Source of the DNA: a virus
Virus genome (UHGV): UHGV-0132465
Direction: 5' to 3' (one strand)
Length of the DNA: 64,000 nucleotides
Shown: piece after piece, positions 23,604-56,433 of the stretch
Numbering within the stretch: the first letter of the stretch is position 1
Layout of the letters: each line of letters starts with the position of its first letter
Notes under the pieces: generated by a model
Told to the model about the DNA's origin: nothing
The model's input: only the letters and a program-made list of their open reading frames with translations
Databases searched by the model: none
Position numbers and translations under genes: made by a program

Positions 23604-23888
23604 ATGGTAGTAGAACCAACAAAAACATTTACCTCCATGACTATCCCTGTCATTATGCAGGTAGAGTGCGTTCAGGTGTCCCAAGTGTGGCCCGGTACTA
23701 AAATTCCAACAGGGCCTGATTTCTTTCAGGTCGGCAAAGTGTATAATGTCTGGAAGGCACCGGATTGTTACCCTTTCATTAAAGATGACCGTGGAATGTT
23801 ATGGTATCTGGGGAATGATTTGACACTGCATCTTGGAAATGCTATTATTGCAGTGTTCCGGCTCAACAAGAAGGAGACAGATCAATGA
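23604..23888 (+). CDS. hypothetical protein, tandem paralogue 1 of 3
   Basis: shares GKVY...DD.G..WY motif with the next two ORFs. Confidence 0.5.
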   Translation: MVVEPTKTFTSMTIPVIMQVECVQVSQVWPGTKIPTGPDFFQVGKVYNVWKAPDCYPFIKDDRGMLWYLGNDLTLHLGNAIIAVFRLNKKETDQ

Positions 23889-24112
23889 CAACTTTGGTTA
23901 AAGCTACGTTTGTAGAAGAAAAGATGACAGACCTGTCATTCTTTGAAGAAGGTAAGGTCTACAAGGTTTATTACGATAAGGATCGCAGGAACAATATGAT
24001 CGAAGACGAGGACGGTATCTCCTGGTATATCTCCCATCTGGCAAATGGTGAGTATCATATCTATGGGACCACCCTACTTGCCAAGTTTGTAGTTGTTGAA
24101 GAGGATCTATGA
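23885..24112 (+). CDS. hypothetical protein, tandem paralogue 2 of 3
   Basis: overlapping stop/start; shared motif. Confidence 0.5.
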   Translation: MTTLVKATFVEEKMTDLSFFEEGKVYKVYYDKDRRNNMIEDEDGISWYISHLANGEYHIYGTTLLAKFVVVEEDL

Positions 24113-24303
24113 AAGTAAAGTATCTGGCTGAAGGTATGAGTAGGTATTTTACCCTTGGGGAAGAGTATTGGCCCTTCACGGAAAATGGAGATGTATACGT
24201 GAAGGATGACCAAGGTGTGCCGTGGTTTCTGCACCATAATGGGTTGGGATATTCCATCTACTGCGGTGCGGTGAACAACACAACCCTTGCAGAGTTTGTA
24301 TAG
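24109..24303 (+). CDS. hypothetical protein, tandem paralogue 3 of 3
   Basis: overlapping stop/start; shared motif. Confidence 0.5.
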   Translation: MKVKYLAEGMSRYFTLGEEYWPFTENGDVYVKDDQGVPWFLHHNGLGYSIYCGAVNNTTLAEFV

Positions 24304-24760: not shown

Positions 24761-25015
24761 ATGAAAATCACTTTGAAGCCAGAATGCGTTGCAAATGACC
24801 GAGCTTTTAAAGATTGCACAGTCGGTGCAATTTATGAAGCAGAGTTTTGTGAGAATCCCCTGGTAAAAGCCCTTCTGGAAGAAGGGGCCCCTTTATCACA
24901 AGAAGAGATTGATGAGCTGGAAAACTCAGCACAGTGCCTTACCTTTAAAGATGATGAAGGAGACTCTGTCTGGTGCACTGTTAATGAAGTAGTTTTTGTA
25001 AAACCTGAACATTAA
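24761..25015 (+). CDS. hypothetical protein, paralogue pair A
   Basis: shares DRAFKDCT...KDDEGD motif with 25079-25351. Confidence 0.5.
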   Translation: MKITLKPECVANDRAFKDCTVGAIYEAEFCENPLVKALLEEGAPLSQEEIDELENSAQCLTFKDDEGDSVWCTVNEVVFVKPEH

Positions 25016-25018
25016 TAC

Positions 25019-25047
25019 TTGACAACAGTGATGGGGCCTAATATAAT
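25019..25047 (+). promoter_or_regulatory. sigma70-like promoter (TTGACA-17-TATAAT)
   Basis: perfect consensus hexamers with 17-bp spacer upstream of 25079. Confidence 0.6.
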
Positions 25048-25078
25048 GGCCCTATCAAAACGAAAGGAGACCACAGCA

Positions 25079-25351
25079 ATGACCAAACAATATCAACGAA
25101 TTAAAGCCAAGGTTAAGCCAGACTATCTGGAGAAGGACTCTGCTTTTCGGGACTGCACAGCAGACAAAATTTACACAGGGGCCGTCCTGCTAAACGATGA
25201 ATTTGAAGTGGATGTGCTAGGTAAGGAGGCTACTATCAAGGATGACCAGGGAGATTATGTTTGCTGCACCACACGTGAGCTAGAAATCTTAGAATACTTC
25301 GGTGAAATCTTCACCTCTCTTGATGATTACTTAGATGACGAGGCAGAGTGA
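25079..25351 (+). CDS. hypothetical protein, paralogue pair B
   Basis: start at ATG after AAGGAG RBS; DSAFRDCT...KDDQGD motif. Confidence 0.5.
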   Translation: MTKQYQRIKAKVKPDYLEKDSAFRDCTADKIYTGAVLLNDEFEVDVLGKEATIKDDQGDYVCCTTRELEILEYFGEIFTSLDDYLDDEAE

Positions 25352-25752
25352 TGAAAAACATTTGGGATATTAATATCTTTGAAGCCTCTGAGCTTGACGG
25401 TGCCGATGGGGTTATTATAGTTTCTGATGGAAAGGCAACACTGACCTCTGGACTGACCTATGAGGACACTACCTACGCACTGGGAGATCTTGCCTTGTTG
25501 AAATCAACAGGTGACTCTCTGGAAGAACGTCTGCAAGGATTTGCCTTTAAAGAAGGCACAAGCACCACACTGATGTGCACTACACGCACTGTTCAGTTGG
25601 GCAACGGGGTCTATATGGTCATTGCAGTGTGCCCCAAATTTAGCAACATCAATAAAGATGATGCTGACGCTGTCAACGACGTGGTTGTCCTCTTCGTTGG
25701 TGACGCTATGGCAGATCTGATGAATGCAGGAGAAGCAGCAAATGAAGACTGA
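25348..25752 (+). CDS. hypothetical protein (134 aa)
   Basis: ORF in co-oriented compact block. Confidence 0.5.
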   Translation: MMKNIWDINIFEASELDGADGVIIVSDGKATLTSGLTYEDTTYALGDLALLKSTGDSLEERLQGFAFKEGTSTTLMCTTRTVQLGNGVYMVIAVCPKFSNINKDDADAVNDVVVLFVGDAMADLMNAGEAANED

Positions 25753-44268: not shown

Positions 44269-44325
44269 GTATGAAACCCTCTTCAGGCAAGGTGTGTATT
44301 ATGGTATGAAACCCTCTTCAGGCAA
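44269..44325. repeat. exact 22-bp direct repeat GTATGAAACCCTCTTCAGGCAA x2, 35 bp apart
   Basis: perfect duplication; flanked by related G-rich motifs at 44226-44250 and 44371-44396. Confidence 0.7.
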
Positions 44326-45084
44326 TGATATTTGTGGGTGTGATATTTGCTGGAAAGCCAGATATGACGGGACTCCCGGCGGGGCAGGGGTAGTACAGAC
44401 AGGGAAAATGTGGGGATGTAGTTGGGGAAATTGATCAGACAGGTAGAGTATGGAATATGTTATGAATATGTTAAATATGGAGGGTGAATATCTGTAGGAT
44501 TTGTGTGTAAAATCAAAGACTTAAGTGGTGTTGTGGTATTTTCTATAAATAATTCAAGTTTAATAGGTAATATTTGTCTCTATCCACTTTGTGTGGTAAA
44601 CAGATTTAGATGAAATTGGTTTACAAGTGTATACATAATATACAAATTAAAGATACAAGAAACCCCCCTCCCCCTTCGGCTACCATTCACCTTTTCCTCT
44701 GACTGGTACTTAAACACTTATTCAGACTCTTCAGGTTATCACCCATATACTATATGGCAGTGACTGGTGTCCTCCGGCCCCTCTTTCGTCACCCGTCCGC
44801 TTCGCCAAGCTAATGCCATAGCCAAATGTTCGGTTGTTCACCCTGTTCACTCAGGTGTATCTCCATACCCCTTCAAACCGAAGAGAACAGAAAACCCGAA
44901 TTACTCGGTAAAAGAAAAGAGAAGAACTTAATTTTATCAAGATAGGCAAGAATGTCAAGGGATGACTGCTCACTAAACAAGCAAACAGTCATGTGTGGTA
45001 GGTAAGTGATTGTAGTGGTGGAAAATTTAGTTGAAAGATGTGTTATAGTGCTCCCAGCACTTTAGCCGGGCAGCTAATTGTGTG

Positions 45085-45300
45085 TCAGTCCAGAGGTTCA
45101 TCCTCCACTTCACTGAAATCAATGTTCATGGTCTCTTCCCAACCATCGATCTCAGCACAAGAGTGAAGTTCTTTAGGGTTTACTCCCAAAGCCTCAGCAA
45201 CAGAGTCTATATTTAACACCTCTGGCAGGTATGATTCATCAAATTCAAGGTAAATCAGGCCACGAGTGTTGTCAGCCCCACCAAATATTTCTATTTTCAT
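45085..45300 (-). CDS. small acidic protein (71 aa), MK(I/V)-family member
   Basis: ORF with GGAG RBS; starts MKIEIF like several downstream paralogues. Confidence 0.5.
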   Translation of the reverse strand: MKIEIFGGADNTRGLIYLEFDESYLPEVLNIDSVAEALGVNPKELHSCAEIDGWEETMNIDFSEVEDEPLD

Positions 45301-45419
45301 GAAATCTCCTCTGGAAATGAGAGTGTGAACAGGGTTATACGTTCCAATATGATGGAATTATGCACGTTTGCCTCTTCAGGCCATGCTTTAGCATGATAAA
45401 CTTATGTGGGCTCGGTGCT

Positions 45420-45632
45420 TCATAGTCTCCCACCTCTGAACTCTTCGTGCTCAGGCATAATAGAGAACCAGATATCTACGATGTCTTCCCACGTTAGGTC
45501 ATCAGCCTCAGGATCTACCTGGAGCGAAGATGGAGAATCTTCAGAATCGAAGTTTTCCTCTTTCACTGGCTCAGCCAAGGGACATATGGTCACTCCTTTG
45601 GATGTCTCTTCAGATGCATGTGTGTTGATCAT
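45420..45632 (-). CDS. acidic hypothetical protein (70 aa)
   Basis: ORF in co-oriented block. Confidence 0.4.
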   Translation of the reverse strand: MINTHASEETSKGVTICPLAEPVKEENFDSEDSPSSLQVDPEADDLTWEDIVDIWFSIMPEHEEFRGGRL

Positions 45633-45939
45633 GTTCCACCCGTGAGTATTCCGGCAACAGCTGCTATGGACGTGATGATCATCAGGATCACCACTAAAAC
45701 CTCTGACAATGTTTTCATTGTGTATTCCATATTATCCAAACAATGTGTGGATATTATCACAGGAGCGGTAATGTGTCAACAGAAGCGCCGCGAGGGTTTG
45801 GTTAAAATCCGAGCGTATGGTGATTTGGGTCAAAACGGACGTGCGTTCTCGCTACGCTCGAAATAGAGAGTTGTTTACAGGCCGTCCTTAAACGCTCTGT
45901 AATAAGATTATCCATCTAAGGTATGCAATCGTGCACCAG

Positions 45940-45968
45940 ATAAAGAAAAGGACGCCACAGAGCGTCCT
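45940..45968 (-). terminator. intrinsic terminator on minus strand (AGGACGC stem + U-run)
   Basis: 7-bp inverted repeat followed on the minus strand by TTTTCTTTAT, just downstream of gene 45993-46304. Confidence 0.55.
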
Positions 45969-45992
45969 AGGTGCCTTAAATTTGATATTTTG

Positions 45993-46304
45993 CTATACCC
46001 ATGAGGGCTTGTCCAGGTTGGAGTAACTGAAAGGGGTCAAAAGGTGACTGTCAAAATCTTTCAAACTGTCCAGATCTTTTTCCTCGTCCTGACACCATCT
46101 GTGTCTACATTTATTGTTGTAGTGCATGGAATGCATAGCGTTCTGCAACTTAATAGGCACAAGTGATTCAGGAGTAGATAGAATTGTTGGGTATGCCAGG
46201 ACTATCTCAAACAATGGAAACACATCGAAACTGAAGTCTATTTCTGCTGAGGTTGCTGGCATATAGGAGTATTTAGCTGTCGTTGTAGACATAATCCACC
46301 TCAC
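45993..46304 (-). CDS. hypothetical protein (103 aa)
   Basis: ORF in co-oriented compact block. Confidence 0.5.
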   Translation of the reverse strand: MRWIMSTTTAKYSYMPATSAEIDFSFDVFPLFEIVLAYPTILSTPESLVPIKLQNAMHSMHYNNKCRHRWCQDEEKDLDSLKDFDSHLLTPFSYSNLDKPSWV

Positions 46305-46633
46305 ACAGGCTTGATAATACCTTCACCGAATAACTCTTTATATTTAATCTTATCAGGATCCCACTCCTGGATAATTTCGAAGACAATATCCAGCCCGGGG
46401 ATAATCACTTCTCCAGTATCAAGTCTGGCAAGAACAAAACCGGAAGGTTGAATGGTTTCCCAGTTACGGCGATCAGAATAGAATACTTCGAAAATATCAC
46501 CAACCTCAATCCGTTTCTGTTGCTCAAGATGATCCAGGTTCTCTTTCATGCGGATGCAGCGTATTTTACGTGCAGGCCACAGGCCACCTGCATCACGTTC
46601 ATTTAGCTCTTTTACAGTAATCGGCATTAACAT
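46301..46633 (-). CDS. hypothetical protein (110 aa)
   Basis: ORF, 4-nt overlap with downstream gene. Confidence 0.5.
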   Translation of the reverse strand: MLMPITVKELNERDAGGLWPARKIRCIRMKENLDHLEQQKRIEVGDIFEVFYSDRRNWETIQPSGFVLARLDTGEVIIPGLDIVFEIIQEWDPDKIKYKELFGEGIIKPV

Positions 46634-46652
46634 CTCTGATCTCCTTCATAGG

Positions 46653-46682
46653 TAGTAAAAAGAGGGGCTTTGAGCCCCTCTT
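46653..46682 (-). terminator. intrinsic terminator on minus strand (AGAGGGGC-TTTGA-GCCCCTCT)
   Basis: 8-bp GC stem followed on the minus strand by T-run. Confidence 0.65.
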
Positions 46683-46687
46683 TGTCA

Positions 46688-46993
46688 TTATTCTACAGAG
46701 CGTTTGAACAGAATGTCTGCTTCAGACATGTGCTCAACCTCCTCTTCGATTTTAGCTCGACGTTTTTCAGCTTCGTAGCGGATATCGAACTCGGTAGCCA
46801 CCAATGACTTGATAAACTTAGGAGAATACAAGTGATCCTGTTTCTCGACAAGAATAATATCCTTGATAGCGTCTTTCAGATCTTTAATCTGAAGCTGAAG
46901 TTCCACCAGCTCTTCAATTGTTTTACGGAGGCGATCACGCTCTGCAATGTCAGAAGGAAGAGAGGTGAACAGTTCAACTTTAGATTTAGCCAT
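46688..46993 (-). CDS. hypothetical coiled-coil-like protein (101 aa)
   Basis: ORF; heptad-like charged sequence. Confidence 0.5.
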   Translation of the reverse strand: MAKSKVELFTSLPSDIAERDRLRKTIEELVELQLQIKDLKDAIKDIILVEKQDHLYSPKFIKSLVATEFDIRYEAEKRRAKIEEEVEHMSEADILFKRSVE

Positions 46994-47021
46994 AGTAAGA
47001 GTCTCCTTATATTGTTTTAAA

Positions 47022-47273
47022 TTAGCGTTCTACAAAAATACCGTTCAGTTCGATAACCAGGAATTTCTGGTCTTCACTATCGTCACGTGCCAGCACCTCA
47101 CAGACGTAACGGTCATCTCCGTCATCATCGCAGTCAAATACAAGGCTGAGGACTTTATCATGATAAACCTTCGCCACTACCGCCTCGTAAGTGTTGCCGA
47201 TTGTGAATCCAAGATAGTCCCCGATGCATTTGACAACAACATGGTCGCCAGCATTTAAGTCAATCTTCGCCAT
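47022..47273 (-). CDS. hypothetical protein (83 aa)
   Basis: start moved to ATG after AAGGAG RBS. Confidence 0.5.
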   Translation of the reverse strand: MAKIDLNAGDHVVVKCIGDYLGFTIGNTYEAVVAKVYHDKVLSLVFDCDDDGDDRYVCEVLARDDSEDQKFLVIELNGIFVER

Positions 47274-47400
47274 TACTGTGCTCCTTGGGTGATAATATGG
47301 TATGTAAAACTTTAACCAGAGATGTGAATAACGCCCCAAAACACACAGATAGCGCTAAAACGGATAAGGCCATCATTAAAGCTTCAGTAAAATCAGTCAT
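47260..47400 (-). CDS. small hydrophobic protein (46 aa)
   Basis: ATG after AAGAGGTGAGGA RBS; hydrophobic core; below ORF-track cutoff. Confidence 0.35.
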   Translation of the reverse strand: MTDFTEALMMALSVLALSVCFGALFTSLVKVLHTILSPKEHSNGED

Positions 47401-47428
47401 TCCTCACCTCTTGTTAGTAACTATACTA

Positions 47429-47692
47429 TCATTTATCTTTGCCGTCAAGAACTTTTTTAAATCTCTCAGGAATATCTCCTGTTCTTAGATAGTTCATGAC
47501 CTCACAAGGTTCCCACTTAAACTTCTTACACAGCAGGGCGGCTGAGATTGTCTCATTGCGAAAAGAAAGGATATCAATATCCCACTCTGAGAACCCTAAT
47601 TTCCGAAGAGTGGCTATAGAAATCCTCACAGCAACCCAACAAGAGAGGCACGCAACAAACGCTACTGCTACAACCCACACCAAGATGTTCAT
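47429..47692 (-). CDS. hypothetical membrane protein (87 aa)
   Basis: N-terminal hydrophobic segment. Confidence 0.5.
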   Translation of the reverse strand: MNILVWVVAVAFVACLSCWVAVRISIATLRKLGFSEWDIDILSFRNETISAALLCKKFKWEPCEVMNYLRTGDIPERFKKVLDGKDK

Positions 47693-47781
47693 ACAGCCCC
47701 CTTAATGAAATACAAGACATAGTGCCAAGGTCACTATCCCGCAAATAATTAACAGTGTCGTTGCAACCTTGGCAAGATTTA

Positions 47782-48069
47782 TCATAGCGTCTCTAAAATT
47801 TCATACCCTTCGGGTCGGAAAACAAGCCACTCAGGTGCTCCATTTGGTCGATACGCTTTATACAGAACAACCTGATCTCGGCACATACACATTGCTACAT
47901 AGTTTTCATCCACACCTGCAGCCTGCATTGCATCTTCTTCTCCGGCAACCGCTTTGCTTACAACTTCCTTGGTAGGCAGGTGGGCGATCAGCTCGTCACC
48001 ATCGTTAATTCCAAAATGGCTGAGTTCTCCATTGGTGTCTTTAATCTTGATCTTAACCAAATCTTTCAT
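47782..48069 (-). CDS. small acidic protein (95 aa), MK-family-like
   Basis: ORF in compact block; ends YEILETL. Confidence 0.5.
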   Translation of the reverse strand: MKDLVKIKIKDTNGELSHFGINDGDELIAHLPTKEVVSKAVAGEEDAMQAAGVDENYVAMCMCRDQVVLYKAYRPNGAPEWLVFRPEGYEILETL

Positions 48070-48398
48070 TAGTCTTCCCCCAAGTTCAAAGGTCCTAAGA
48101 TCTCATATGCCAGATTAGAAGTTACCAGAGGATCTTCTGCATCTTTAGTATTATACCACCCGTGAATAACCAGAGTCCCACTTTGCTTCATGTCTAACTG
48201 GAACTGTTCTGCCGTTTCCTCATCCATCTCCAAGATCTCCATGAGGTATTTGATGTTAGGAAGGTATGCAGCTGTTACAGTCCCCTCTACTAGGCCTTCA
48301 GGCCAACCTACATCCGGATGACAAGTAGGGACCAGAGAGGTCAGCTTGATAGTGTATGCTTTTTCTGCACGAGCCTTCAGTAACGGATCAATTTTCAT
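48069..48398 (-). CDS. small acidic protein (109 aa)
   Basis: ORF abutting neighbours. Confidence 0.5.
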   Translation of the reverse strand: MKIDPLLKARAEKAYTIKLTSLVPTCHPDVGWPEGLVEGTVTAAYLPNIKYLMEILEMDEETAEQFQLDMKQSGTLVIHGWYNTKDAEDPLVTSNLAYEILGPLNLGED

Positions 48399-48748
48399 TA
48401 TTCTTCCTCCTCTTCGGTGCCTGCTTCCAGTAGTAAGTTAAGAACATCTTCAGCAGAAGGTTCGTAGAACTCTTGGCCTTCGTTGTCGATGATACGATAG
48501 TCATCACCACGAATAATCAGAGGATCGTTATCAAAACCTTCAAGACCTTTAACAACGACAACACGGTCGATTGCCATCATTGTAAGAACTTTATCAACAT
48601 CTTCCTCTGCCACACCATACTGCAGCAGGATGTCTTTGGTAGGAGGAACAGCATCAACCACAACACCGTTACCAAAACCTTCCGGAAGTTTAGCTAAAAT
48701 ATCTTCCGGAACCGCATTCATATCAAAACCTGTGATCTCTACTTTCAT
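48398..48748 (-). CDS. small acidic protein (116 aa)
   Basis: ORF abutting neighbours; poly-Glu C terminus. Confidence 0.5.
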   Translation of the reverse strand: MKVEITGFDMNAVPEDILAKLPEGFGNGVVVDAVPPTKDILLQYGVAEEDVDKVLTMMAIDRVVVVKGLEGFDNDPLIIRGDDYRIIDNEGQEFYEPSAEDVLNLLLEAGTEEEEE

Positions 48749-49009
48749 TTACAGCACCTCTTCGTCAACTACTTCATAAAAATGGCTTGGGATTGCAATG
48801 GCGTTCTCGCCTTCACCTAAGAACACTGTCCCACTAACGATTAACATTAGAAGAACGTCTGCGATACCTTCCTCGGGTACGTTGCCAAAACCTTTAATCA
48901 GCTCGTAGGTTGGAAGATTTACCTCTAAGATGTCACCATCCTTAGAACGGAAATCAACACCGTCCTGAATCTCTGCCGTTTCAAGGTTTTTCAATTTAAT
49001 CTTCATCAA
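48749..49009 (-). CDS. small acidic protein (86 aa), MKIK family
   Basis: MMKIKLKNLE start, EVVDEEVL end as in paralogues. Confidence 0.5.
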   Translation of the reverse strand: MMKIKLKNLETAEIQDGVDFRSKDGDILEVNLPTYELIKGFGNVPEEGIADVLLMLIVSGTVFLGEGENAIAIPSHFYEVVDEEVL

Positions 49010-49085
49010 TCAGTCTCCTGTCTTGTTAAGATGGAGGTATTATTGCACACAGGGTTGGTGTTGTCAACACCTGTGTGGCATAAAA

Positions 49086-49481
49086 TTACTGAAATAGTGC
49101 AGATAAATTACCTTCTGGTGGGAACTTATCTGCCAGGAATGGGGTTAGAACAGTGGCCTTCTGAATATCAGGGGTCCACTCATTGTTCAGAACATCCCAG
49201 TAGTACGCAATGTTACTGTGTGGGTGCCGCATTACGAACTTTTTCCCTTCGTAGTCAGTTGAAACCTCTACAGAAGAAATAACAACAGAGTCTTCAAGGG
49301 TTTCTTCATAGAAAGATCCACCCTCAAATTTCCAACGAGATGCAAGAGCTCCTGCCTTGAACGCTGCAGATAACGGACTGTCTGCAAGAACATACATTTC
49401 TTGCACTCTGTCACTGCGATCTTTGCTTCTTACATTGTATACAGTATCCGAGCTATACTCAACACGGTATAGACTTACCAT
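49086..49481 (-). CDS. hypothetical protein (131 aa), paralogue of 51288-51686
   Basis: shared FV(M/I)(R/V)HP.S...(Y/H)YW(D/N)....(E/K)WTP motif. Confidence 0.55.
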   Translation of the reverse strand: MVSLYRVEYSSDTVYNVRSKDRSDRVQEMYVLADSPLSAAFKAGALASRWKFEGGSFYEETLEDSVVISSVEVSTDYEGKKFVMRHPHSNIAYYWDVLNNEWTPDIQKATVLTPFLADKFPPEGNLSALFQ

Positions 49482-49813
49482 TACCTAACCTCCTCAATAA
49501 CTTCCACATCTGAACCCACCACAAATGCAAAAGGGCAGGTTTCATGAAAGATATCCGGATCTCCACCAAGCTTGCTAACTATCTCTCCACCACTAATAAA
49601 CACAAGCTCACCAATATTCATCAGATTGCTAAAATAGTAGCCATAATGATTGAAGAATGCAGCTGGGTCAGGTAGACTGGTGGCCTCAAGCTCTACATTG
49701 CTTGAGATCACTTTCTTATCATACCCTCTCGCCTTTTGAGATGCAAGATCTGCAGAGTCTTCAGGAGACCGGAGATGCACAGGAATTGTTTCACCAATAA
49801 AGCGTACTTTCAT
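49481..49813 (-). CDS. small acidic protein (about 110 aa), MKV family
   Basis: start moved to MKVRFIGE after GGGGTGAG RBS; ends EVIEEVR. Confidence 0.5.
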   Translation of the reverse strand: MKVRFIGETIPVHLRSPEDSADLASQKARGYDKKVISSNVELEATSLPDPAAFFNHYGYYFSNLMNIGELVFISGGEIVSKLGGDPDIFHETCPFAFVVGSDVEVIEEVR

Positions 49814-49817
49814 ATTC

Positions 49818-50081
49818 TCACCCCACAATCATAGCTTCAAAAGGTGTCATAAACGAATAAACAGCATCATCATCTGCTTCAGGGAATGCCCCCAAAGACT
49901 TTATGTCTGATCCCTTGACAAATACAAGGTTTTGATCAAAAGCTTCTTGGGGATCAATCCGATACATATCTCGTAGGATATTGCTTACCTCCTCATCAAG
50001 AGGTGAGTATGCTGTGCACGTTTTTCCAATCAAGCTTTGAGAATCAGGGTATCCACCTGAAGTTTTAAAATAAACAATCAT
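49818..50081 (-). CDS. hypothetical protein (87 aa)
   Basis: ORF in compact block. Confidence 0.45.
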   Translation of the reverse strand: MIVYFKTSGGYPDSQSLIGKTCTAYSPLDEEVSNILRDMYRIDPQEAFDQNLVFVKGSDIKSLGAFPEADDDAVYSFMTPFEAMIVG

Positions 50082-50172
50082 ATAGTATCACCTCTGGCAA
50101 GAGATGGGGATTCCTTTCCCACAAATAATTACAAACCTTCCTTATCGAGGAAGCATGCTAATCCAAGCAGGA

Positions 50173-50442
50173 TTATTCCTCTACAATCTCATACACATCA
50201 GGAGTTACAATCAACTCTTCTCCGTTACCCGGTGCAACAAACACCACCAAGCCTTCAGGTGTGTGCTTTTTAGCCATCTCGATAACATCTTCTCGCAGAG
50301 CTGGCTCCATCAGATCAAAGCCTTCACCCAGGGCATCACGAACCACCTTCATATAGTCCACTGGTTGTGCTTCAACAATCATGCCTTCAACCAGTCCACA
50401 GTTTTTGTCTGCCAGCTCAGTTTTGAATAATTTAATTTTCAT
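50173..50442 (-). CDS. small acidic protein (89 aa), MKIK family
   Basis: MKIKLFKTEL start, YEIVEE end. Confidence 0.5.
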   Translation of the reverse strand: MKIKLFKTELADKNCGLVEGMIVEAQPVDYMKVVRDALGEGFDLMEPALREDVIEMAKKHTPEGLVVFVAPGNGEELIVTPDVYEIVEE

Positions 50443-50468
50443 TTAGAGGTCTCCTCAATTATTTGATA

Positions 50469-50570
50469 TTAATAGCCGTAACCTAACACATTAACTACAA
50501 CTACGATTGCAAACATAATTTCAAAGCATGCAATCTCTACATTTGGGACTAATTTCTTAATCATACCCAT
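50469..50570 (-). CDS. small hydrophobic peptide (33 aa)
   Basis: ATG after GGAGAATGAGGTG RBS; single hydrophobic helix. Confidence 0.3.
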   Translation of the reverse strand: MGMIKKLVPNVEIACFEIMFAIVVVVNVLGYGY

Positions 50571-50579
50571 TGTAGCACC

Positions 50580-50897
50580 TCATTCTCCAAAGTCAATCTT
50601 TACTTTGCCTTTCCCCTTACCTTTCTTTCCACCACATTTAGCCAACTGACGTGCTGCAACATCTACCATACGGTCAGTTGCCTCGTAAGCATCACTGCCT
50701 TTAGCTTTGGCAATAACTTCTTTTCCGGAAGTGTCAAAAATGAACGCCATAACTTCCTGGTGATCATTTTCAACTTTTACACTCACACGTGCATAGTTGG
50801 CAGAGGGGTGCAAACGCTCCAGCTTAGACATTTTGTGGGAAATGAAAGACACCATACCTTCAGTGATTTCTACGTTGCCAGTGATTTCAATTTGCAT
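50580..50897 (-). CDS. hpf: ribosome hibernation promoting factor / RaiA (YfiA)-family protein with Lys/Gly-rich tail
   Basis: MQIEITGNVEIT...KLERL...A.VSVKVE N terminus and ...ATD...DVAARQL.K matching E. coli HPF by eye; extra C-terminal GGKKGKGKGKVK tail. Confidence 0.8.
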   Translation of the reverse strand: MQIEITGNVEITEGMVSFISHKMSKLERLHPSANYARVSVKVENDHQEVMAFIFDTSGKEVIAKAKGSDAYEATDRMVDVAARQLAKCGGKKGKGKGKVKIDFGE

Positions 50898-50979
50898 AAC
50901 GTGTTCCTTTTAAAGAAGAGGGAACCAAACCCTCTTTGAAAACAATGATACTAAATCTGAAGCGTTGTGTCAACAGTTT

Positions 50980-51270
50980 TTACAGCTTGTCGTCGATAGT
51001 TTTTAAAATATCCACAGCAAGATCTGCCATTTTTCGAACATACTCTGCAAACTCAACAGGATCCTTGATCAAAGAATTCACAGGGTCGTACCCTAGAGCG
51101 TTCAAAATGGCTGCAGCATCTACAACCTTCTCATCATTTGCGAAGATCTCTCCATCAAACTTGTAGGTCCATTTTGAGTCAATCTTGGCAGAGAAGGATT
51201 GGTCAACGCTTGTTACACCATCCTTTTTAAACTCTCCAGTGTTATCAGTGTCCAGAACTAAATCCATCAT
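50980..51270 (-). CDS. hypothetical protein (96 aa)
   Basis: ORF in co-oriented compact block. Confidence 0.5.
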   Translation of the reverse strand: MMDLVLDTDNTGEFKKDGVTSVDQSFSAKIDSKWTYKFDGEIFANDEKVVDAAAILNALGYDPVNSLIKDPVEFAEYVRKMADLAVDILKTIDDKL

Positions 51271-51287
51271 GTTAGTACCTCACTGTT

Positions 51288-51686
51288 TCAGTCTAGCTTT
51301 TCTTCAACAACCCCATAACTTGGGGCAGAGTCAAGAGCTTTCTGGTTTAAAAGTGGCGTAGCAGAATCTGCAAACGGTGTCCAAGTTTTTGTTCTGGCAT
51401 TCCAGTAATGCTTCACTCTGGAATCTGGATGCACTATAACAAAAACTTTTTCACTTGTCAACACATTAATTTCTTCTACACCCTTGCTGATAATTTCTCC
51501 GTCATAGCCACCAGTCTGGTATCCTTCGTACCAGGTTCTTGCATATGCATAGCCAGCCTGCCAGCATGCAGCCTCCTCCGAGGTGGAGACTACGTAGAAG
51601 TCTTTCTCAAATTCTGGGATACGCCCTTGCTTTACGCTCCAAGACCCGCGAATTTTCATTGTAACTTTGAACAGTTTATTTTTCAC
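51288..51686 (-). CDS. hypothetical protein (132 aa), paralogue of 49086-49481
   Basis: shared motif with 49086-49481. Confidence 0.55.
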   Translation of the reverse strand: MKNKLFKVTMKIRGSWSVKQGRIPEFEKDFYVVSTSEEAACWQAGYAYARTWYEGYQTGGYDGEIISKGVEEINVLTSEKVFVIVHPDSRVKHYWNARTKTWTPFADSATPLLNQKALDSAPSYGVVEEKLD

Positions 51687-51698
51687 AACGGTTACCCC

Positions 51699-51953
51699 TC
51701 ACAGCTCTACAATCTCTGCATCTGACCCTGCCCCAAAGGCATAATAGGATTCTTCCCCGAAATAATATTCCGGTGCACCAGCAGCGATCAGGTCTGATCC
51801 CAAGATAAACACCACGTTGTGGCCTACATAACTGTGATGTTGCCGCACAGGATCATCCCACGGCAACCCTTCAAAGTATACCGCAGGAACGACCTTTCCA
51901 TTCAGGAAGGATTGTCCCAAGTAGACGTTAGAATCAAGAATTTTAACCTTCAT
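51699..51953 (-). CDS. small protein (84 aa), MKVK family
   Basis: MKVKILDSNVYLGQ ... SDLIAAGA ... EIVEL. Confidence 0.55.
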   Translation of the reverse strand: MKVKILDSNVYLGQSFLNGKVVPAVYFEGLPWDDPVRQHHSYVGHNVVFILGSDLIAAGAPEYYFGEESYYAFGAGSDAEIVEL

Positions 51954-52170
51954 TCTCGTCCTCCACTATCTCTACATCCTCACCAAGGGCAAAGTTGTAG
52001 GTCCACTGACTGTCAAAGCAGTCCTGAGATGCACCAGCGGCAATAAGATCTGCACCTTTTATTTTTAAAAGGTCAGGATAATCTTCGTTAGGGATAGCGG
52101 TAAACACTTTCCCCACTAAGGGCTCCTGACCAATATAGAAGCTTGAATCTAAAACTTTAACTTTCATCAA
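51943..52170 (-). CDS. small protein (75 aa), MKVK family
   Basis: MMKVKVLDSSFYIGQ ... ADLIAAGA ... EIVED; tandem to 51699-51953. Confidence 0.55.
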   Translation of the reverse strand: MMKVKVLDSSFYIGQEPLVGKVFTAIPNEDYPDLLKIKGADLIAAGASQDCFDSQWTYNFALGEDVEIVEDENEG

Positions 52171-52451
52171 CGGTCTCCCTCAGGCGGTTGTGGAACGTAA
52201 ACACTGTTACGAATCTCGTCAGCAGTGTAGTAACAAGTTTTCCCCTCTCTGCCCCTGGCAGCAATGTATTCAGCTATACCAATAAGTGCCATAGCCTTGG
52301 TGGCGTATCTCTTAAGCTCGTTAGCTCCCCAGCAAAATCTCTGCCAAAACGGTATGAAACCGAATAGGTACACCTTCTGTTTCACTATCCAATAAGTTCC
52401 TTTACAGATCACTTTAAACTCTGCAGCACTATTGCTAACACCATTGCTCAT
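52167..52451 (-). CDS. hypothetical protein (94 aa)
   Basis: ORF, 4-nt overlap. Confidence 0.5.
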   Translation of the reverse strand: MSNGVSNSAAEFKVICKGTYWIVKQKVYLFGFIPFWQRFCWGANELKRYATKAMALIGIAEYIAARGREGKTCYYTADEIRNSVYVPQPPEGDR

Positions 52452-52463
52452 TATCTTCTCCTT

Positions 52464-52748
52464 TTATTTTTCTGGGTTTGGCAGATATTGCACATTGGCA
52501 GGAGGAACACCGGATAGCTCCCAAACAACCATAGTGCTGTACCCTGGCACACTTCTAACATTTAAAAGAGTAGGAGCACCAACACATTTAAACTTCCTTT
52601 TCCCAAATCCGTTCTCCATCATAACCCAGTATCCGGTATCCTGATCACCGGGAATTTGTGTTCCATCATCGTCCACCCAGCGGACGGTCCATTTCGATAC
52701 AGCAACGGCTCGGTATTTAAACTTTTTAAACCACTCAAACAGTTTCAT
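52464..52748 (-). CDS. hypothetical protein (about 94 aa)
   Basis: start moved to MKLFEWF after GAGG RBS. Confidence 0.45.
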   Translation of the reverse strand: MKLFEWFKKFKYRAVAVSKWTVRWVDDDGTQIPGDQDTGYWVMMENGFGKRKFKCVGAPTLLNVRSVPGYSTMVVWELSGVPPANVQYLPNPEK

Positions 52749-52932
52749 CTTCAGCCTCGCTTGGCAGCCCTTCCATTTTGACATACCGGAAAGTGTTGCC
52801 GTAATAGTTGATCCATGACATCAGCTCACTTTCTTGCTCTTCCTCTGGGATGGACTCTCTAACGCTGACAAGTTTTAAGAAAACCCAATCACAATCCACC
52901 CCCATCCTACCAGACAGACAATAGTGCTTCAT
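52735..52932 (-). CDS. hypothetical protein (65 aa)
   Basis: ATG after GGGAGGG RBS; 14-nt overlap with downstream gene. Confidence 0.4.
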   Translation of the reverse strand: MKHYCLSGRMGVDCDWVFLKLVSVRESIPEEEQESELMSWINYYGNTFRYVKMEGLPSEAEDETV

Positions 52933-52950
52933 AAAACCCTCCCGCCTGGT

Positions 52951-53145
52951 TTAGAATATTGCTTCTTCCATTGCACCTGAGAGCAACAAAGAGGTAATCT
53001 GGCTAACATTCATCTCAGACTCCACTTCCTCTCCTTTGAAAGGTTCGCGGCAGAATAGGACTGTTTCAGGATTTTTACTTCGAACAATATAATACAAATC
53101 ATTCAAAGTGTTGTAGTAATAAGTGTTAAAATGTAAGTTTTTCAT
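52951..53145 (-). CDS. hypothetical protein (64 aa)
   Basis: ORF in compact block. Confidence 0.4.
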   Translation of the reverse strand: MKNLHFNTYYYNTLNDLYYIVRSKNPETVLFCREPFKGEEVESEMNVSQITSLLLSGAMEEAIF

Positions 53146-53429
53146 TTTCTAGTCCCCTTTTTAGATTTTTGTGCAGAAACGCTTTCTGCAATACGAGACA
53201 GGCGTTCTTCTGAAGCTTTACCTACCCCAGGTTTCTTGAGCGGGTTATCTTTATGACCGCAATCCAATTGGATGCTAGATACATCCCCAACCTTGTAAGT
53301 CAATTCTAGCAAAAGGTTGTCGTCCTTGTCAAATGTTTTTACGATAAATTTTTTATCGTCCTCCTTAACTTCATATCTAGTACCTGCAGTATACAGCATG
53401 GTGCCATCAGCGTAGGATATCCAGATCAT
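53142..53429 (-). CDS. hypothetical protein (95 aa)
   Basis: ORF, ATGA overlap. Confidence 0.5.
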   Translation of the reverse strand: MIWISYADGTMLYTAGTRYEVKEDDKKFIVKTFDKDDNLLLELTYKVGDVSSIQLDCGHKDNPLKKPGVGKASEERLSRIAESVSAQKSKKGTRK

Positions 53430-53773
53430 TGCACCTCCTTCTGCTGCAACAGCATCAACTCTTTGTTGGAAATCTTTACTGCTGTCTTTATTGTCCCATC
53501 TTCACGGAACCACGACCAGAATTCTACAGTATCACCACTATCAAGCAAGGCATGACCATGGTAAAAATCTTTGTCCTTAGACAGTTTCTCATCTATATCT
53601 GCATCGACACATTCGTGATCCATAGCATTCTGCCTGAATGCATCGGTTATGCCAATGCACGCCTTACTCTCAAGGCTGGTATACCCAATATCTTTTAATT
53701 CAGTTTCCCAAGTCCAGTATCCTACAAAAGCTACAACAGCCACCCACATTAATATAGATTTAATCTTTGACAT
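53426..53773 (-). CDS. membrane-anchored hypothetical protein (115 aa)
   Basis: N-terminal hydrophobic helix ILMWVAVVAFVGYW. Confidence 0.5.
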   Translation of the reverse strand: MSKIKSILMWVAVVAFVGYWTWETELKDIGYTSLESKACIGITDAFRQNAMDHECVDADIDEKLSKDKDFYHGHALLDSGDTVEFWSWFREDGTIKTAVKISNKELMLLQQKEVQ

Positions 53774-53833
53774 TCTCTCTACCTCTTTCTTAGTTTATTT
53801 AGTTATGGCACATCCTTTGTGCCATAATGCACA

Positions 53834-54295
53834 TTACTTAAACAACAGTTCAAAATAGTGCAAAATTAACAGAAGTTGAATTACGCCTAGCACAACTGCA
53901 AGTATGTTGATCTTAGAATCAAAAAACTTCTTAACTTTTACCCTAAAAGGCTCCTTAATGTCCTTTACGATCCTATTTATAGATGATTTCATATCCCTGA
54001 TTACCATCCTAAACATTAGAGACGGATCTTCCTTCTCTGTAACGGAATCGAAAACATACTCTCTTCGGTCATAAGGACCTCCAGATCTGCGTATTAACCT
54101 CTCCACAGATACCTCGTACGACACACCTGTAACGTAATCATCTATGACAAGTAGTGACGGGTCTTTATCGTCCAAAGGTATCAAAGTTATCTTTCCAGAT
54201 TTTGTTAAAATTTCTCCTTTTTCAAGCAGTGTGTACCAATGCTCTCTACCAAGGTTGTTGAGGCACGTTTTTACATATTTAACAAACATCGTCAC
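53834..54295 (-). CDS. hypothetical protein with C-terminal transmembrane segment (153 aa)
   Basis: ORF; hydrophobic C terminus. Confidence 0.5.
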   Translation of the reverse strand: MTMFVKYVKTCLNNLGREHWYTLLEKGEILTKSGKITLIPLDDKDPSLLVIDDYVTGVSYEVSVERLIRRSGGPYDRREYVFDSVTEKEDPSLMFRMVIRDMKSSINRIVKDIKEPFRVKVKKFFDSKINILAVVLGVIQLLLILHYFELLFK

Positions 54296-54477
54296 CCCTC
54301 ATCGCACGTCTGATATAGCCATTCTATGAAATCTTGATACCACTCTCCCTCTGAGCGCTCCGTAGGCCAATAATCTTCCCCCTCTCTTGCATTAAAATCT
54401 GAGTATTCAACTTTCCACTCCTTTACCAGCTCGTGGAGAAGGTTTTCAGCCTGTTCTAAGGATTTATTTTTTGTCAT
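54292..54477 (-). CDS. hypothetical protein (about 61 aa)
   Basis: start moved to ATG after AGGGGA RBS. Confidence 0.4.
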   Translation of the reverse strand: MTKNKSLEQAENLLHELVKEWKVEYSDFNAREGEDYWPTERSEGEWYQDFIEWLYQTCDEG

Positions 54478-54712
54478 TACTGTCCCCTTTTTCAAGATAA
54501 TTATACATCAGCGCCGCGCCACCTAAAATGGCTACCAGCAGTAATACCCCAGAGAGCATTTCAATAAACATGGCTTGAAACATTAGAAGGCCCCCTAATT
54601 TCACGCACCATTTTAAATACATATTCTTTTCCCATAAAGGTGCCCGGCTAAGATCTGCGTAGAATGCAATCTCTTTAAGAACAGTATAAACAGTTTTAGG
54701 TGCGGTATCCAT
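54464..54712 (-). CDS. hypothetical membrane protein (about 82 aa)
   Basis: start moved to MDTAPK after AAAAGGAGAG RBS; two hydrophobic segments. Confidence 0.45.
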   Translation of the reverse strand: MDTAPKTVYTVLKEIAFYADLSRAPLWEKNMYLKWCVKLGGLLMFQAMFIEMLSGVLLLVAILGGAALMYNYLEKGDSNDKK

Positions 54713-54932
54713 CCCTACTCTCCTTTTTCCCCTTACGGATATTCTTGTGGTAATCAACTAGGCACATTATTACGATGAAGATAACAACAGGCCAAAAGGG
54801 CGCAGCAGTGATGATGGTGATAAAATCATCAAACTTCACCCTTCGTGTAGACACGATGCATATACCTGCCAAGATTACTGCTGTTAGAACAGCTACTACC
54901 AGGTAACCTATCAGCACAGCATCTATACTCAT
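54696..54932 (-). CDS. hypothetical membrane protein (78 aa)
   Basis: two hydrophobic segments. Confidence 0.45.
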   Translation of the reverse strand: MSIDAVLIGYLVVAVLTAVILAGICIVSTRRVKFDDFITIITAAPFWPVVIFIVIMCLVDYHKNIRKGKKESRDGYRT

Positions 54933-54950
54933 TGGCTCCTCCTTTGTAGG

Positions 54951-55496
54951 TTAAATTGTACACTGCAGGTGGTTGCCGAGGGTGTCAAGAAAATTATCCC
55001 GTTCTTTCTCAGAGTTTTCATGGGTGTAGCTGAAAAACATATCTAGAATAACCTTATTGATATATTCCAGCTCCTCTGTGTTCAGGTACTTAGCAGGATC
55101 TACAATGACATCCCAAATATCATACAAACCGCACTCATGATACCCCCAACGCCGCTCAATTGTCAAACTGAGCGGCAAATCTTTACCATCACAAACAACC
55201 TTCCATCTGCAGATGTTGGTATCTGGACGTACCTGTGTACGGTATACCTGTACAAAATCCAATTTGAATTGGAGGTACTCGTCATACAATTTAAGTACAA
55301 AACTCTCGATTTGTGGAGATACTTTTGCAGCAAACTGTGCGTATTTGTACTTGCACTGGATGATCTTTCTGCGTTTTGCAGTTAAATTTTTTGCAGCCAG
55401 TTGTTCTTCAGTGTACCTCCACCTACGATCAACAAACGCAACAGGGTCTTTGTCCCCATAGAGGTCTTCCCAGTTAATCAGAAGCATACCTGCCAC
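54951..55496 (-). CDS. hypothetical protein (181 aa)
   Basis: ORF in co-oriented compact block. Confidence 0.5.
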   Translation of the reverse strand: MAGMLLINWEDLYGDKDPVAFVDRRWRYTEEQLAAKNLTAKRRKIIQCKYKYAQFAAKVSPQIESFVLKLYDEYLQFKLDFVQVYRTQVRPDTNICRWKVVCDGKDLPLSLTIERRWGYHECGLYDIWDVIVDPAKYLNTEELEYINKVILDMFFSYTHENSEKERDNFLDTLGNHLQCTI

Positions 55497-55726
55497 TCCT
55501 CCACAACTTCAAGGCCTTTGCCGCCTCGTTCTGGTAGATTACTTAAAGACAGGTAATACGTATAGTCAGGAGAGATCCTGCCAGACTCTGCACCTGCAGC
55601 TAGTAAATCTTTTCCCTTAACCATGACAACATTATCGTTTGCAGATAGCCGTTTTGCTTCCACAATTTTACCAACGCAGTCAACCAAGGAAGGGTACCCT
55701 AAATCTGTAAGAAATTTAACTTTCAT
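55478..55726 (-). CDS. small protein (82 aa), MKVK family
   Basis: MKVKFLTDLGYP ... KDLLAAGA motif. Confidence 0.55.
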   Translation of the reverse strand: MKVKFLTDLGYPSLVDCVGKIVEAKRLSANDNVVMVKGKDLLAAGAESGRISPDYTYYLSLSNLPERGGKGLEVVEEWQVCF

Positions 55727-55765
55727 GCTACCTCCTGCTTTTACCGTCCCTGGTAAGATAAATTA

Positions 55766-56164
55766 TTACTGAACAGATCGCGGAGCTGGGAAGGATAACT
55801 CTTCTAAAGAGAAGATTTCATTTCCCACAATCCATGTTGCCGGATCATCCGGGTTGACTGGATAGATAATCATCACCTCGTCCGTGTTACATACTCGCTT
55901 TTTACCTGTGGAGTTATCAGCAACTAGCATGCGAGGCTCTTCAGAGATACACAAGTATCCACCACGTCCAACTGTCCCTTCTACAGGATCCTGGCCTTTT
56001 ATCACGATGAATATCTTCTCTCCTGAGGTGATATTACCTTGCACACTCACCGTTTGACCAACCTTGGATGTGCCAATCTTAGTGACTTCGAACATTACAT
56101 CACGGATAACTGTTGCATAGTTACCAGAGACTTTCTTACCTTCTTCAGTAATCTCAATCTTCAT
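55766..56164 (-). CDS. hypothetical protein (132 aa)
   Basis: ORF in co-oriented compact block. Confidence 0.5.
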   Translation of the reverse strand: MKIEITEEGKKVSGNYATVIRDVMFEVTKIGTSKVGQTVSVQGNITSGEKIFIVIKGQDPVEGTVGRGGYLCISEEPRMLVADNSTGKKRVCNTDEVMIIYPVNPDDPATWIVGNEIFSLEELSFPAPRSVQ

Positions 56165-56433
56165 AATCTAGGCTCCTTAAATGAATCTATATAGTCAATT
56201 AAATCCCAAGCATCCCTATGACCTGTCAGAGGGTATACTTCTCCAAGAGGGATCATAGCAATAAGCCTATCAAAAACCCAGTCTGGACGCAACATTTTAT
56301 GATGATATTCCCACTCACCTTCCACAGATTTTTTCTGAGTGATCAGAATCTCTGTGTAGTGTTTTGCCTGTCTTGAGTAAATTGAAAATGACTTATACAT
56401 AGATGACCCCCTCTTGTTGAAAACAAAATACAC
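56161..56433 (-). CDS. hypothetical protein (90 aa)
   Basis: ORF, 4-nt overlap. Confidence 0.5.
   Translation of the reverse strand: MYFVFNKRGSSMYKSFSIYSRQAKHYTEILITQKKSVEGEWEYHHKMLRPDWVFDRLIAMIPLGEVYPLTGHRDAWDLIDYIDSFKEPRL

Follow-up and report, generated by a model that had tools for sequence, protein, structure and literature searches.

Three families of small paralogous proteins in a promoter-distal gene block of a Vequintavirus genome

The window analysed here is a stretch of 64,000 nucleotides (nt), or 64 kilobases (kb), from the virus genome UHGV-0132465, which belongs to Vequintavirus, the rV5-like coliphages, myoviruses with genomes of ~136 kb. Our subject is the block of small genes at positions 45085-56433 of its minus strand, and in particular three families of paralogous genes within it, which we term FamA, FamB and FamE. 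An earlier note, made from the letters alone, had described this region as a dense block of more than 35 small genes holding several tandem paralogue families, and had taken these for rapidly duplicating families of a kind that in phages often serves host interaction or anti-defence. The block is indeed as described: the list of open reading frames (ORFs) contains ~38 contiguous ones on the minus strand, and a simple gene caller predicts 35 genes of at least 40 amino acids (aa), with a coding density of 0.89 and a median product of 94 aa. For the 101 other called genes of the window the median is 99 aa, so small size is not peculiar to the block. Megablast matched the region to 123 phage records, 116 of which span 80% or more of it with 90-97% identity (92-97% for the Vequintavirus genomes); the best matches are the Escherichia phages vB_EcoM-ECP26, NHEP1 and B9-1, and identity to published genomes reaches 96-97%; relatives carry 37-40 annotated coding sequences across the matching stretch, and the published annotations give "hypothetical protein" for almost every gene.

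45085..56433, minus strand: small-gene block of ~38 genes, equivalent to rV5 ORFs 125-163 (ORF list, gene calling, rV5 record)

Twelve of these genes fall into the three families, whose reality we consider scarcely open to doubt. A first-pass grouping by all-against-all BLASTP and iterated hidden Markov models (HMMs) over all 455 ORFs of the window yielded FamA and FamB. The five FamA genes, cited hereafter, like all others, by their lowest coordinate, are:

55478..55726, minus strand: FamA, phrog_5009, singleton copy of 82 aa (77 aa in relatives) (BLASTP, HMM, PHROGs)
51943..52167, minus strand: FamA, phrog_5009, 74 aa, first of an adjacent pair; the modelled protein (BLASTP, PHROGs, model)
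51699..51953, minus strand: FamA, phrog_5009, 84 aa, second gene of that pair; a short insert follows β2 (BLASTP, PHROGs, alignment)
49818..50081, minus strand: divergent FamA, phrog_13920, 87 aa; β2 and β3 are separated by an insert of ~24 aa (HMM, PHROGs, alignment)
49481..49813, minus strand: divergent FamA, phrog_13661, 110 aa; β2 and β3 are separated by an insert of ~50 aa (HMM, PHROGs, alignment)

Within FamA, 51699 and 51943 are linked by BLASTP at E = 3e-14 and 51943 and 55478 at E = 2e-6, and the two divergent members, 49818 and 49481, enter by HMM (E = 8e-6 and 4e-5); the paralogues are 25-50% identical. An exhaustive HMMER search of 1.84 billion representative proteins with the FamA profile recovered 92 clusters, and a profile made solely from 65 distant homologues outside the window retrieved these five genes of the window and no others (E = 4e-25 to 3e-6), with 49818 and 49481 at E = 3e-6 and 5e-7 and the next window ORF at 0.095. 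The family thus defined is a domain of ~70 aa without a Pfam entry, and its wider consensus reads MKVKLLNDGGYxGM..V.GKVV.A....V.G.ELI.AGA...F....Y.F....E.EVIEE. All the family genes of the block match PHROG profiles from end to end (E = 1e-32 to 1e-74), and each of those PHROGs is listed as "unknown function". PHROGs already unites 51699, 51943 and 55478 in phrog_5009 and keeps 49818 and 49481 outside it; relative to that resource, the five-member FamA, the FamE grouping described below and the shared fold are additions of the present analysis. Given its length relative to the 77-aa orthologues, the product of 55478 has five additional C-terminal residues: most relatives end in ...GLEVVEE, the extra WQVCF overlaps the start of the next gene, and the usual stop codon appears to have been lost in the window genome.

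FamB comprises two genes, both matching phrog_7379 with E below 1e-65:

51288..51686, minus strand: FamB, phrog_7379, 132 aa, GTG start, directly after the 51943/51699 FamA pair (BLASTP, PHROGs)
49086..49481, minus strand: FamB, phrog_7379, 131 aa, directly after the 49818/49481 FamA pair (BLASTP, PHROGs)

The two had been picked out in the earlier note as clear paralogues, and BLASTP bears this out with reciprocal, full-length similarity (E = 1.5e-6, 27% identity over 119 aa). They lie 1.8 kb apart (~2.2 kb from start to start) and are therefore dispersed copies and not tandem ones. The earlier description of the block as containing paralogue families is upheld for twelve genes; its word "tandem" fails for FamB. 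The order FamA-FamA-FamB occurs twice on the minus strand, as 51943-51699-51288 and as 49818-49481-49086, suggesting that a trio of genes was duplicated long ago; the pairwise similarities do not clearly confirm it, since by position the units do not agree consistently, 51699 and 49481 being the best pair between them and 51943 and 49818 a weak one.

FamE consists of five genes, four of which are contiguous (47782-49006):

50173..50442, minus strand: FamE, phrog_11868, 89 aa; the modelled protein, an SH3-like barrel with a three-helix insert (HMM, PHROGs, model)
48749..49006, minus strand: FamE, phrog_12359, 85 aa; the weakest link, with E = 0.78 and pairwise z-scores of 4.0-4.5 (HMM, Smith-Waterman)
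48398..48748, minus strand: FamE, phrog_12155, 116 aa, ending in a poly-Glu tail; net charge -21 (HMM, PHROGs)
48069..48398, minus strand: FamE, phrog_12457, 109 aa (HMM, PHROGs)
47782..48069, minus strand: FamE, phrog_12794, 95 aa; orthologue split in rV5 into ORF153 and ORF154 (HMM, PHROGs, rV5 record)

These paralogues are only 22-32% identical, and the family emerges from the concentration of weak similarities among its members: FamE-internal pairs account for 6 of the 12 top weak Smith-Waterman pairs (hypergeometric p = 5e-9). When each gene was in turn left out of a FamE HMM and sought among ~450 ORFs, the omitted gene ranked first in four of five cases, at E = 8e-5 to 1e-3 with the next-best ORF at 0.06 or worse; the exception was 48749, which ranked third. 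The grouping is new, because PHROGs holds the five genes in five separate families. Two observations on sequences outside the window concern FamE. In rV5 (DQ832317, 9526-9796) the orthologue of 47782-48069 is represented by two overlapping ORFs, 153 and 154, a split that reflects either a pseudogene created by a frameshift or an error in the sequencing of 2006. A 657-nt contig from ENA encodes a 98-aa protein (P0178) in which the N-terminus of DUF7399 (PF24132) precedes the C-terminal half of FamE 48069; this is possibly another recombinant or an assembly chimera.

The shared termini that first drew attention to these genes are a genuine feature of the block. The start MK[VI][KERD][VIFL] is found in 9 of its 35 called genes and in none of the 101 others (Fisher p = 2e-6), and the acidic tail [ED][IV][IVL][EDG] in 8 of 35 as against 3 of 101 (p = 9e-4); only FamA and FamE have both motifs in one protein. 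Thus the enrichment perceived in the earlier note is real; the set it described is two families and not one. The idea that all MK...EIVE genes form a single family was rejected, as neither HMM nor hhalign comparisons link FamA to FamE. In particular, 48749 and 50173 have no detectable homology to the other four genes that the note had listed with them (HMM E > 3), and they fall outside FamA when compared with the profile of outside homologues (E = 7.8-16). Eight further candidates (45085, 55766, 47022, 46301, 50980, 52951, 53142 and 45420) were likewise discarded, their matches to the FamA and FamE profiles exceeding neither 8% probability nor 17 columns. Two of them illustrate how short the likeness can be:

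45085..45300, minus strand: 71-aa protein, net charge -16, starting MKIEIF; resembles FamA and FamE in its first 5-7 residues only (profile comparison)
55766..56164, minus strand: 132-aa protein, starting MKIEIT; no detectable relation to FamA or FamE apart from its first residues (profile comparison)

The structural models provide the common ground on which FamA and FamE can be compared. The AlphaFold2 model of 51943, built from an alignment of 22 rows, has a mean confidence (predicted local distance difference test, pLDDT) of 90.4 and shows five strands (E2-5, E21-23, E33-37, E56-61 and E65-69) with a short helix after β3. That of 50173, from a joint FamE alignment of 20 rows, has a pLDDT of 92.6 and the same strand order, with three helices at residues 30-60 inserted between β2 and β3, which is also the insert site of FamA 51699, 49818 and 49481. 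Both models are five-stranded SH3-like barrels that match solved SH3 or KOW domains structurally, and on this modelling FamA and FamE very probably belong to one fold class. Because of this, the caveat of the earlier note, that the similarity might be limited to Lys-rich N-termini without a shared fold, does not describe the genes that it named; at the level of sequence it does describe 45085 and 55766. Pfam yields no family, SH3 and KOW models included, at E up to 0.1 for 8 of the 10 proteins or up to 0.01 for 47782 and 48069. Relative to the known SH3-like small β-barrels (eukaryotic SH3, the KOW domain of NusG/Spt5, PsaE, the C-terminal domain of retroviral integrase, and OapB), to which they are only 4-25% identical, the two families differ in several respects: 1) in FamA the short helix after β3 bears the most conserved motif, G-x-[DE]-L-I-x-x-G-A. 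2) FamE contains its 30-residue three-helix insert. 3) Both are strongly acidic, whereas the RNA- and DNA-binding barrels are not. 4) Both stand alone and do not form part of larger proteins. The acidic character extends across the families, with an isoelectric point (pI) of 4.1-5.3 in 11 of the 12 genes and a net charge of -7 to -21 for most.

Outside the genus only FamA has been encountered; FamB and FamE are restricted to Vequintavirus-like sequences. Among GenBank phages FamA was found in 18, those of Proteus, Vibrio, Pantoea, Morganella, Citrobacter, Aeromonas and Iodobacter, in each case under a hypothetical annotation. It is also present in lambdoid prophages of E. coli, in the interval from the Q antiterminator to the holin. 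Contigs from IMG/VR carry it either as a lone gene or in runs of 2-3 neighbouring copies, beside replication or terminase genes; certain polypeptides carry 2-3 copies of the domain, and one FamA protein is fused to DUF3310. The resemblance to the accessory position between Q and lysis genes in lambdoid prophages consists in a 75-aa FamA protein (P0031, from a cluster of 309 sequences) among unannotated small genes; the prophages have a single copy in the late operon of a temperate phage, whereas the five copies of the window belong to a lytic myovirus and share a unit with replication genes. One chimeric protein, P0027, joins an N-terminus of the prophage type to a C-terminus of the 51943 type.

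The spread of FamA through unrelated phages, its tandem arrays and internal repeats there, and its place in the Q-holin accessory region of prophages might be taken to favour the view that these are rapidly duplicating arms-race genes, that is, anti-defence or host-range factors with a fast turnover of both copy number and sequence. The accessory-type position and the small, acidic products would suit this view, and copy number can evidently change. Two metagenomic contigs (L018 and L019 7001-7213; 133 kb and 79 kb) carry a hybrid gene of 70 aa in place of 51943 and 51699, in which 141 nt at the 5' end are of the 51943 type and 72 nt at the 3' end of the 51699 type, with the crossover within the conserved codons for DLIAAGA. 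Phage EduardKellenberger (Bas59; MZ501061) has a 3.7-kb deletion equivalent to 51374-55090 of the window, by which it loses 51699, 51943, most of 51288 and about ten other genes, and in which an in-frame fusion (4707-5183) joins the N-terminal part of the orthologue of 54951, annotated as a "putative glycosidase", to the C-terminus of FamB 51288. The tempo of evolution speaks against the arms-race view. The paralogues are 22-50% identical overall, whereas orthologues of the family genes across the genus are 81-100% identical, with ratios of non-synonymous to synonymous substitution (dN/dS) of 0.00-0.22 relative to both EcoIv14a_Aya, the most divergent Vequintavirus, and EmilHeitz. The window, VB-EcoM-WM, EmilHeitz, EcoIv14a_Aya and rV5 each have 5 FamA, 2 FamB and 5 FamE genes (with one FamE gene split in rV5), tblastn finds two places per record in ~116-117 of 118-119 GenBank records, and the copy-number changes observed are losses only, never gains. 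Furthermore, the BASEL study described the Vequintavirinae as "exceptionally susceptible" to restriction-modification, against which they seem to have no effective protection (PMC8594841). We therefore consider an arms race of this kind improbable, and the phrase "rapidly duplicating" in the earlier note does not hold for this genus. Divergence to such a degree, combined with purifying selection on each copy, points to a stable, sub-functionalised set of paralogues that is not actively expanding. Since EduardKellenberger was isolated on E. coli K-12, the deleted genes are dispensable there, and 51699, 51943 and 51288 are very probably accessory and dispensable.

The transcriptional setting of the block is that of an end region. 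By ORF correspondence it is the promoter-distal end of the rV5 transcription unit "genes 82-163", which also carries genes of nucleotide metabolism and replication (PMC3606486), and its transcriptionally upstream neighbours are larger genes for a methyltransferase, a ClpP-like protease and PhoH. A consensus scan found 40 σ70-like promoters as against 27.7 ± 4.7 in shuffled sequences, the strong ones lying in intergenic gaps, and two of these, like one terminator, coincide with features annotated in rV5:

50945..50973, minus strand: σ70-like promoter with 11/12 consensus positions, upstream of the HPF gene; annotated in rV5 as P144 (consensus scan, rV5 annotation)
49039..49067, minus strand: σ70-like promoter with 11/12 positions and an extended -10, upstream of the FamE run; annotated in rV5 as P150 (consensus scan, rV5 annotation)
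46659..46683, no strand assigned: GC-rich terminator-like intergenic hairpin, matching the rho-independent terminator that the rV5 annotation places behind ORF158 (hairpin, rV5 annotation)

Taking these strands of evidence together, we propose the following account, which as a whole we hold to be the best explanation by a modest measure. 1) The block would be the distal end of a long Vequintavirus transcription unit, equipped with σ70-type promoters of its own. 2) Twelve of its ~38 genes would descend, in three families, from old tandem or segmental duplications. 3) The small, acidic products of FamA and FamE would be cytoplasmic and would fold into a five-stranded SH3-like β-barrel, whose conserved MK(V/I)K(V/I/L/F) start would form strand β1 and whose E(I/V)VE end would form β5, closing the barrel; as the wider FamA consensus carries the MK...EIVE signature, the signature would be FamA's own first and last strands. 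4) FamE and the FamA members 49818 and 49481 have inserts between β2 and β3, and FamB is a separate, Vequintavirus-only family of ~130 aa. 5) Occasional unequal recombination and deletions would still alter the copy number. 6) The barrels might act as stoichiometric protein-binding modules, each with a different host or phage partner in the takeover of the cell, and the family genes would be conditionally dispensable accessory genes. The interpretation of the earlier note is supported in part by what lies around the families, namely a small-gene region rich in σ70 promoters, some genes that can be lost, and FamA relatives in classic accessory positions of phages and prophages. We put forward host-protein binding tentatively, and regard a specifically anti-defence role as unlikely; the families gave no sequence or fold match to characterised anti-defence proteins (Ocr, ArdA, Tad1/2, Acb1/2, Gad1 and similar ones).

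Several points weigh against this account. The first concerns the link between FamA and FamE. The hhalign alignment of the two families is confined to the first 28 residues (columns), at a probability of 4-9%, and the separation of all five FamE genes in PHROGs argues against a link in sequence; with no such link and with separate PHROGs, convergence on a very common fold is possible. Under this alternative, the MK...EIVE likeness would arise because a Lys codon in second position aids the initiation of translation, and because small barrels that begin and end in strands give termini with alternating hydrophobic and charged residues. The abundance of SH3-like barrels among small folds and the presence of an MK start in 15 of the 35 block genes are in keeping with it. 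So too is the match of 45085 and 55766 at the start alone, and an MK-like start by itself is not diagnostic, because the unrelated HPF protein of the block begins MQIEITG. Conversely, the full N-terminal motif is missing from the rest of the window's genes, which are under equal translational constraints, and the two terminal motifs co-occur in FamA and FamE alone. The strand order is the same in both, the β2-β3 insert site is that of FamA 49818 and 49481, and the genes of the two families are interleaved within an 8-kb stretch. We give convergence serious but somewhat less than even weight, and take common ancestry of FamA and FamE to be plausible and at most slightly favoured.

The second group of points concerns function. 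Sequence searches of the PDB with the FamA, FamB and FamE profiles gave chance matches only, BFVD returned uncharacterised phage proteins alone, and no annotated homologue or experiment assigns a function to the families. Nucleic-acid binding is open to SH3-like barrels, being common in those of the KOW type, and here seems unlikely given the negative charge. That the block genes are expressed early is suggested by the σ70-consensus promoters in the gaps and by the gene order; no transcriptome of a Vequintavirus infection was found in the literature.

A further alternative would make the small acidic proteins virion-associated, as internal or ejected proteins or as assembly chaperones, and not factors of takeover. 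Small size and acidity are common among the internal proteins that other phages eject, and the orthologue of a neighbouring gene, 53834-54295 (rV5 ORF133), is annotated as a "possible structural protein". Yet none of the FamA, FamE or FamB orthologues has a structural annotation in the records inspected, the genes are distant from the morphogenesis module and in a unit with replication genes, a phage without three of them is viable, and FamA homologues elsewhere adjoin replication genes. We thus regard a virion role as very improbable.

In its organisation the block appears to resemble the early arrays of other large phages. In T4-type phages, in the host-takeover module of SPO1 and in the pre-early region of T5, dense runs of genes for fewer than 150 aa stand behind host-type promoters; most are ORFans and individually dispensable, and some are duplicated. 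No sequence relation between the block and these arrays was found, no characterised takeover protein was recovered, and matches in BFVD to T4-like phages (Merlin, RB49) are at the level of fold and to uncharacterised proteins only. A bolder proposal is that FamA and FamE unite in a single superfamily not described before, made up of acidic, stand-alone SH3-like "MKVK...EIVEE" proteins, amplified repeatedly by phages of Proteobacteria as tandem genes and internal repeats, and used as a versatile scaffold that binds and neutralises varied host proteins, defence sensors included. This we consider doubtful; if true, the Vequintaviruses would carry a fixed panel of ten binders.

Paralogues and duplications go unmentioned in the paper on the rV5 genome (PMC3606486), and a preprint on a screen of phage accessory genes does not mention rV5 or Vequintavirus. 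With the present grouping, about one third of a "hypothetical protein" block is reduced to three families, and ten of its genes to one fold class, so that a group of phages commonly isolated for use in therapy and biocontrol is left with fewer independent unknowns. As FamA recurs in many unrelated phages and prophages, a single functional assignment would transfer widely, and the natural deletion phage Bas59 and the natural hybrid gene provide ready genetic material for the study of function. The sequences themselves are already public, and small accessory paralogues in a large lytic phage are a familiar arrangement; the block is an uncharacterised but ordinary accessory-gene array, whose FamA domain family merits a database entry.

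One gene in the midst of the paralogues can be assigned to a known family:

50580..50897, minus strand: homologue of the ribosome hibernation factor HPF/RaiA, starting MQIEITG (PF02482, 48.2 bits against a cut-off of 23.7, profile positions 1-83 of 88)

It has its own σ70-like promoter and is conserved throughout the genus (dN/dS 0.04-0.06). In a Pfam scan of 34 block proteins and 16 others (FamA relatives, neighbours and plus-strand genes), it was the sole match among the block proteins.

On the plus strand of the window, two further groups of adjacent paralogues were recovered:

23604..24303, plus strand: divergent triplet of genes, 23604-23888, 23885-24112 and 24109-24303 (BLASTP, HMM, shared columns)
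24761..25351, plus strand: adjacent paralogue pair, 24761-25015 and 25019/25046-25351 (BLASTP, HMM)

The tandem triplication that the earlier note had seen is thereby supported, 23604 and 23885 matching at E = 9e-5 and the third gene, 24109, being weak but top-ranked (E = 0.004), with the shared columns F..G..Y...D..G..W..H. The pair that it had given as 24761/25079 is likewise one of paralogues (BLASTP E = 9e-8), with the start of the second gene at 25019 or 25046 and not at 25079. A gene at 25348-25752 on the same strand is a candidate third member of this pair, with weak support (HMM E = 0.08).

Between the converging plus- and minus-strand units lies a stretch of ~650 nt (44440-45084) without an ORF of at least 60 aa, a tRNA gene or an Rfam match; the whole window is devoid of tRNA genes and Rfam matches, and the predicted RNA folding energy of the stretch is at the level of shuffled sequence (z = -0.15). 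Just upstream of it, at 44269-44325 on the plus strand, an exact 22-nt direct repeat, GTATGAAACCCTCTTCAGGCAA, is present twice, 35 nt apart from start to start. Finally, 18 GenBank records (MG0656xx) named "Campylobacter phage", with Campylobacter jejuni as host, are 92-93% identical to the block, and their host labels look doubtful.

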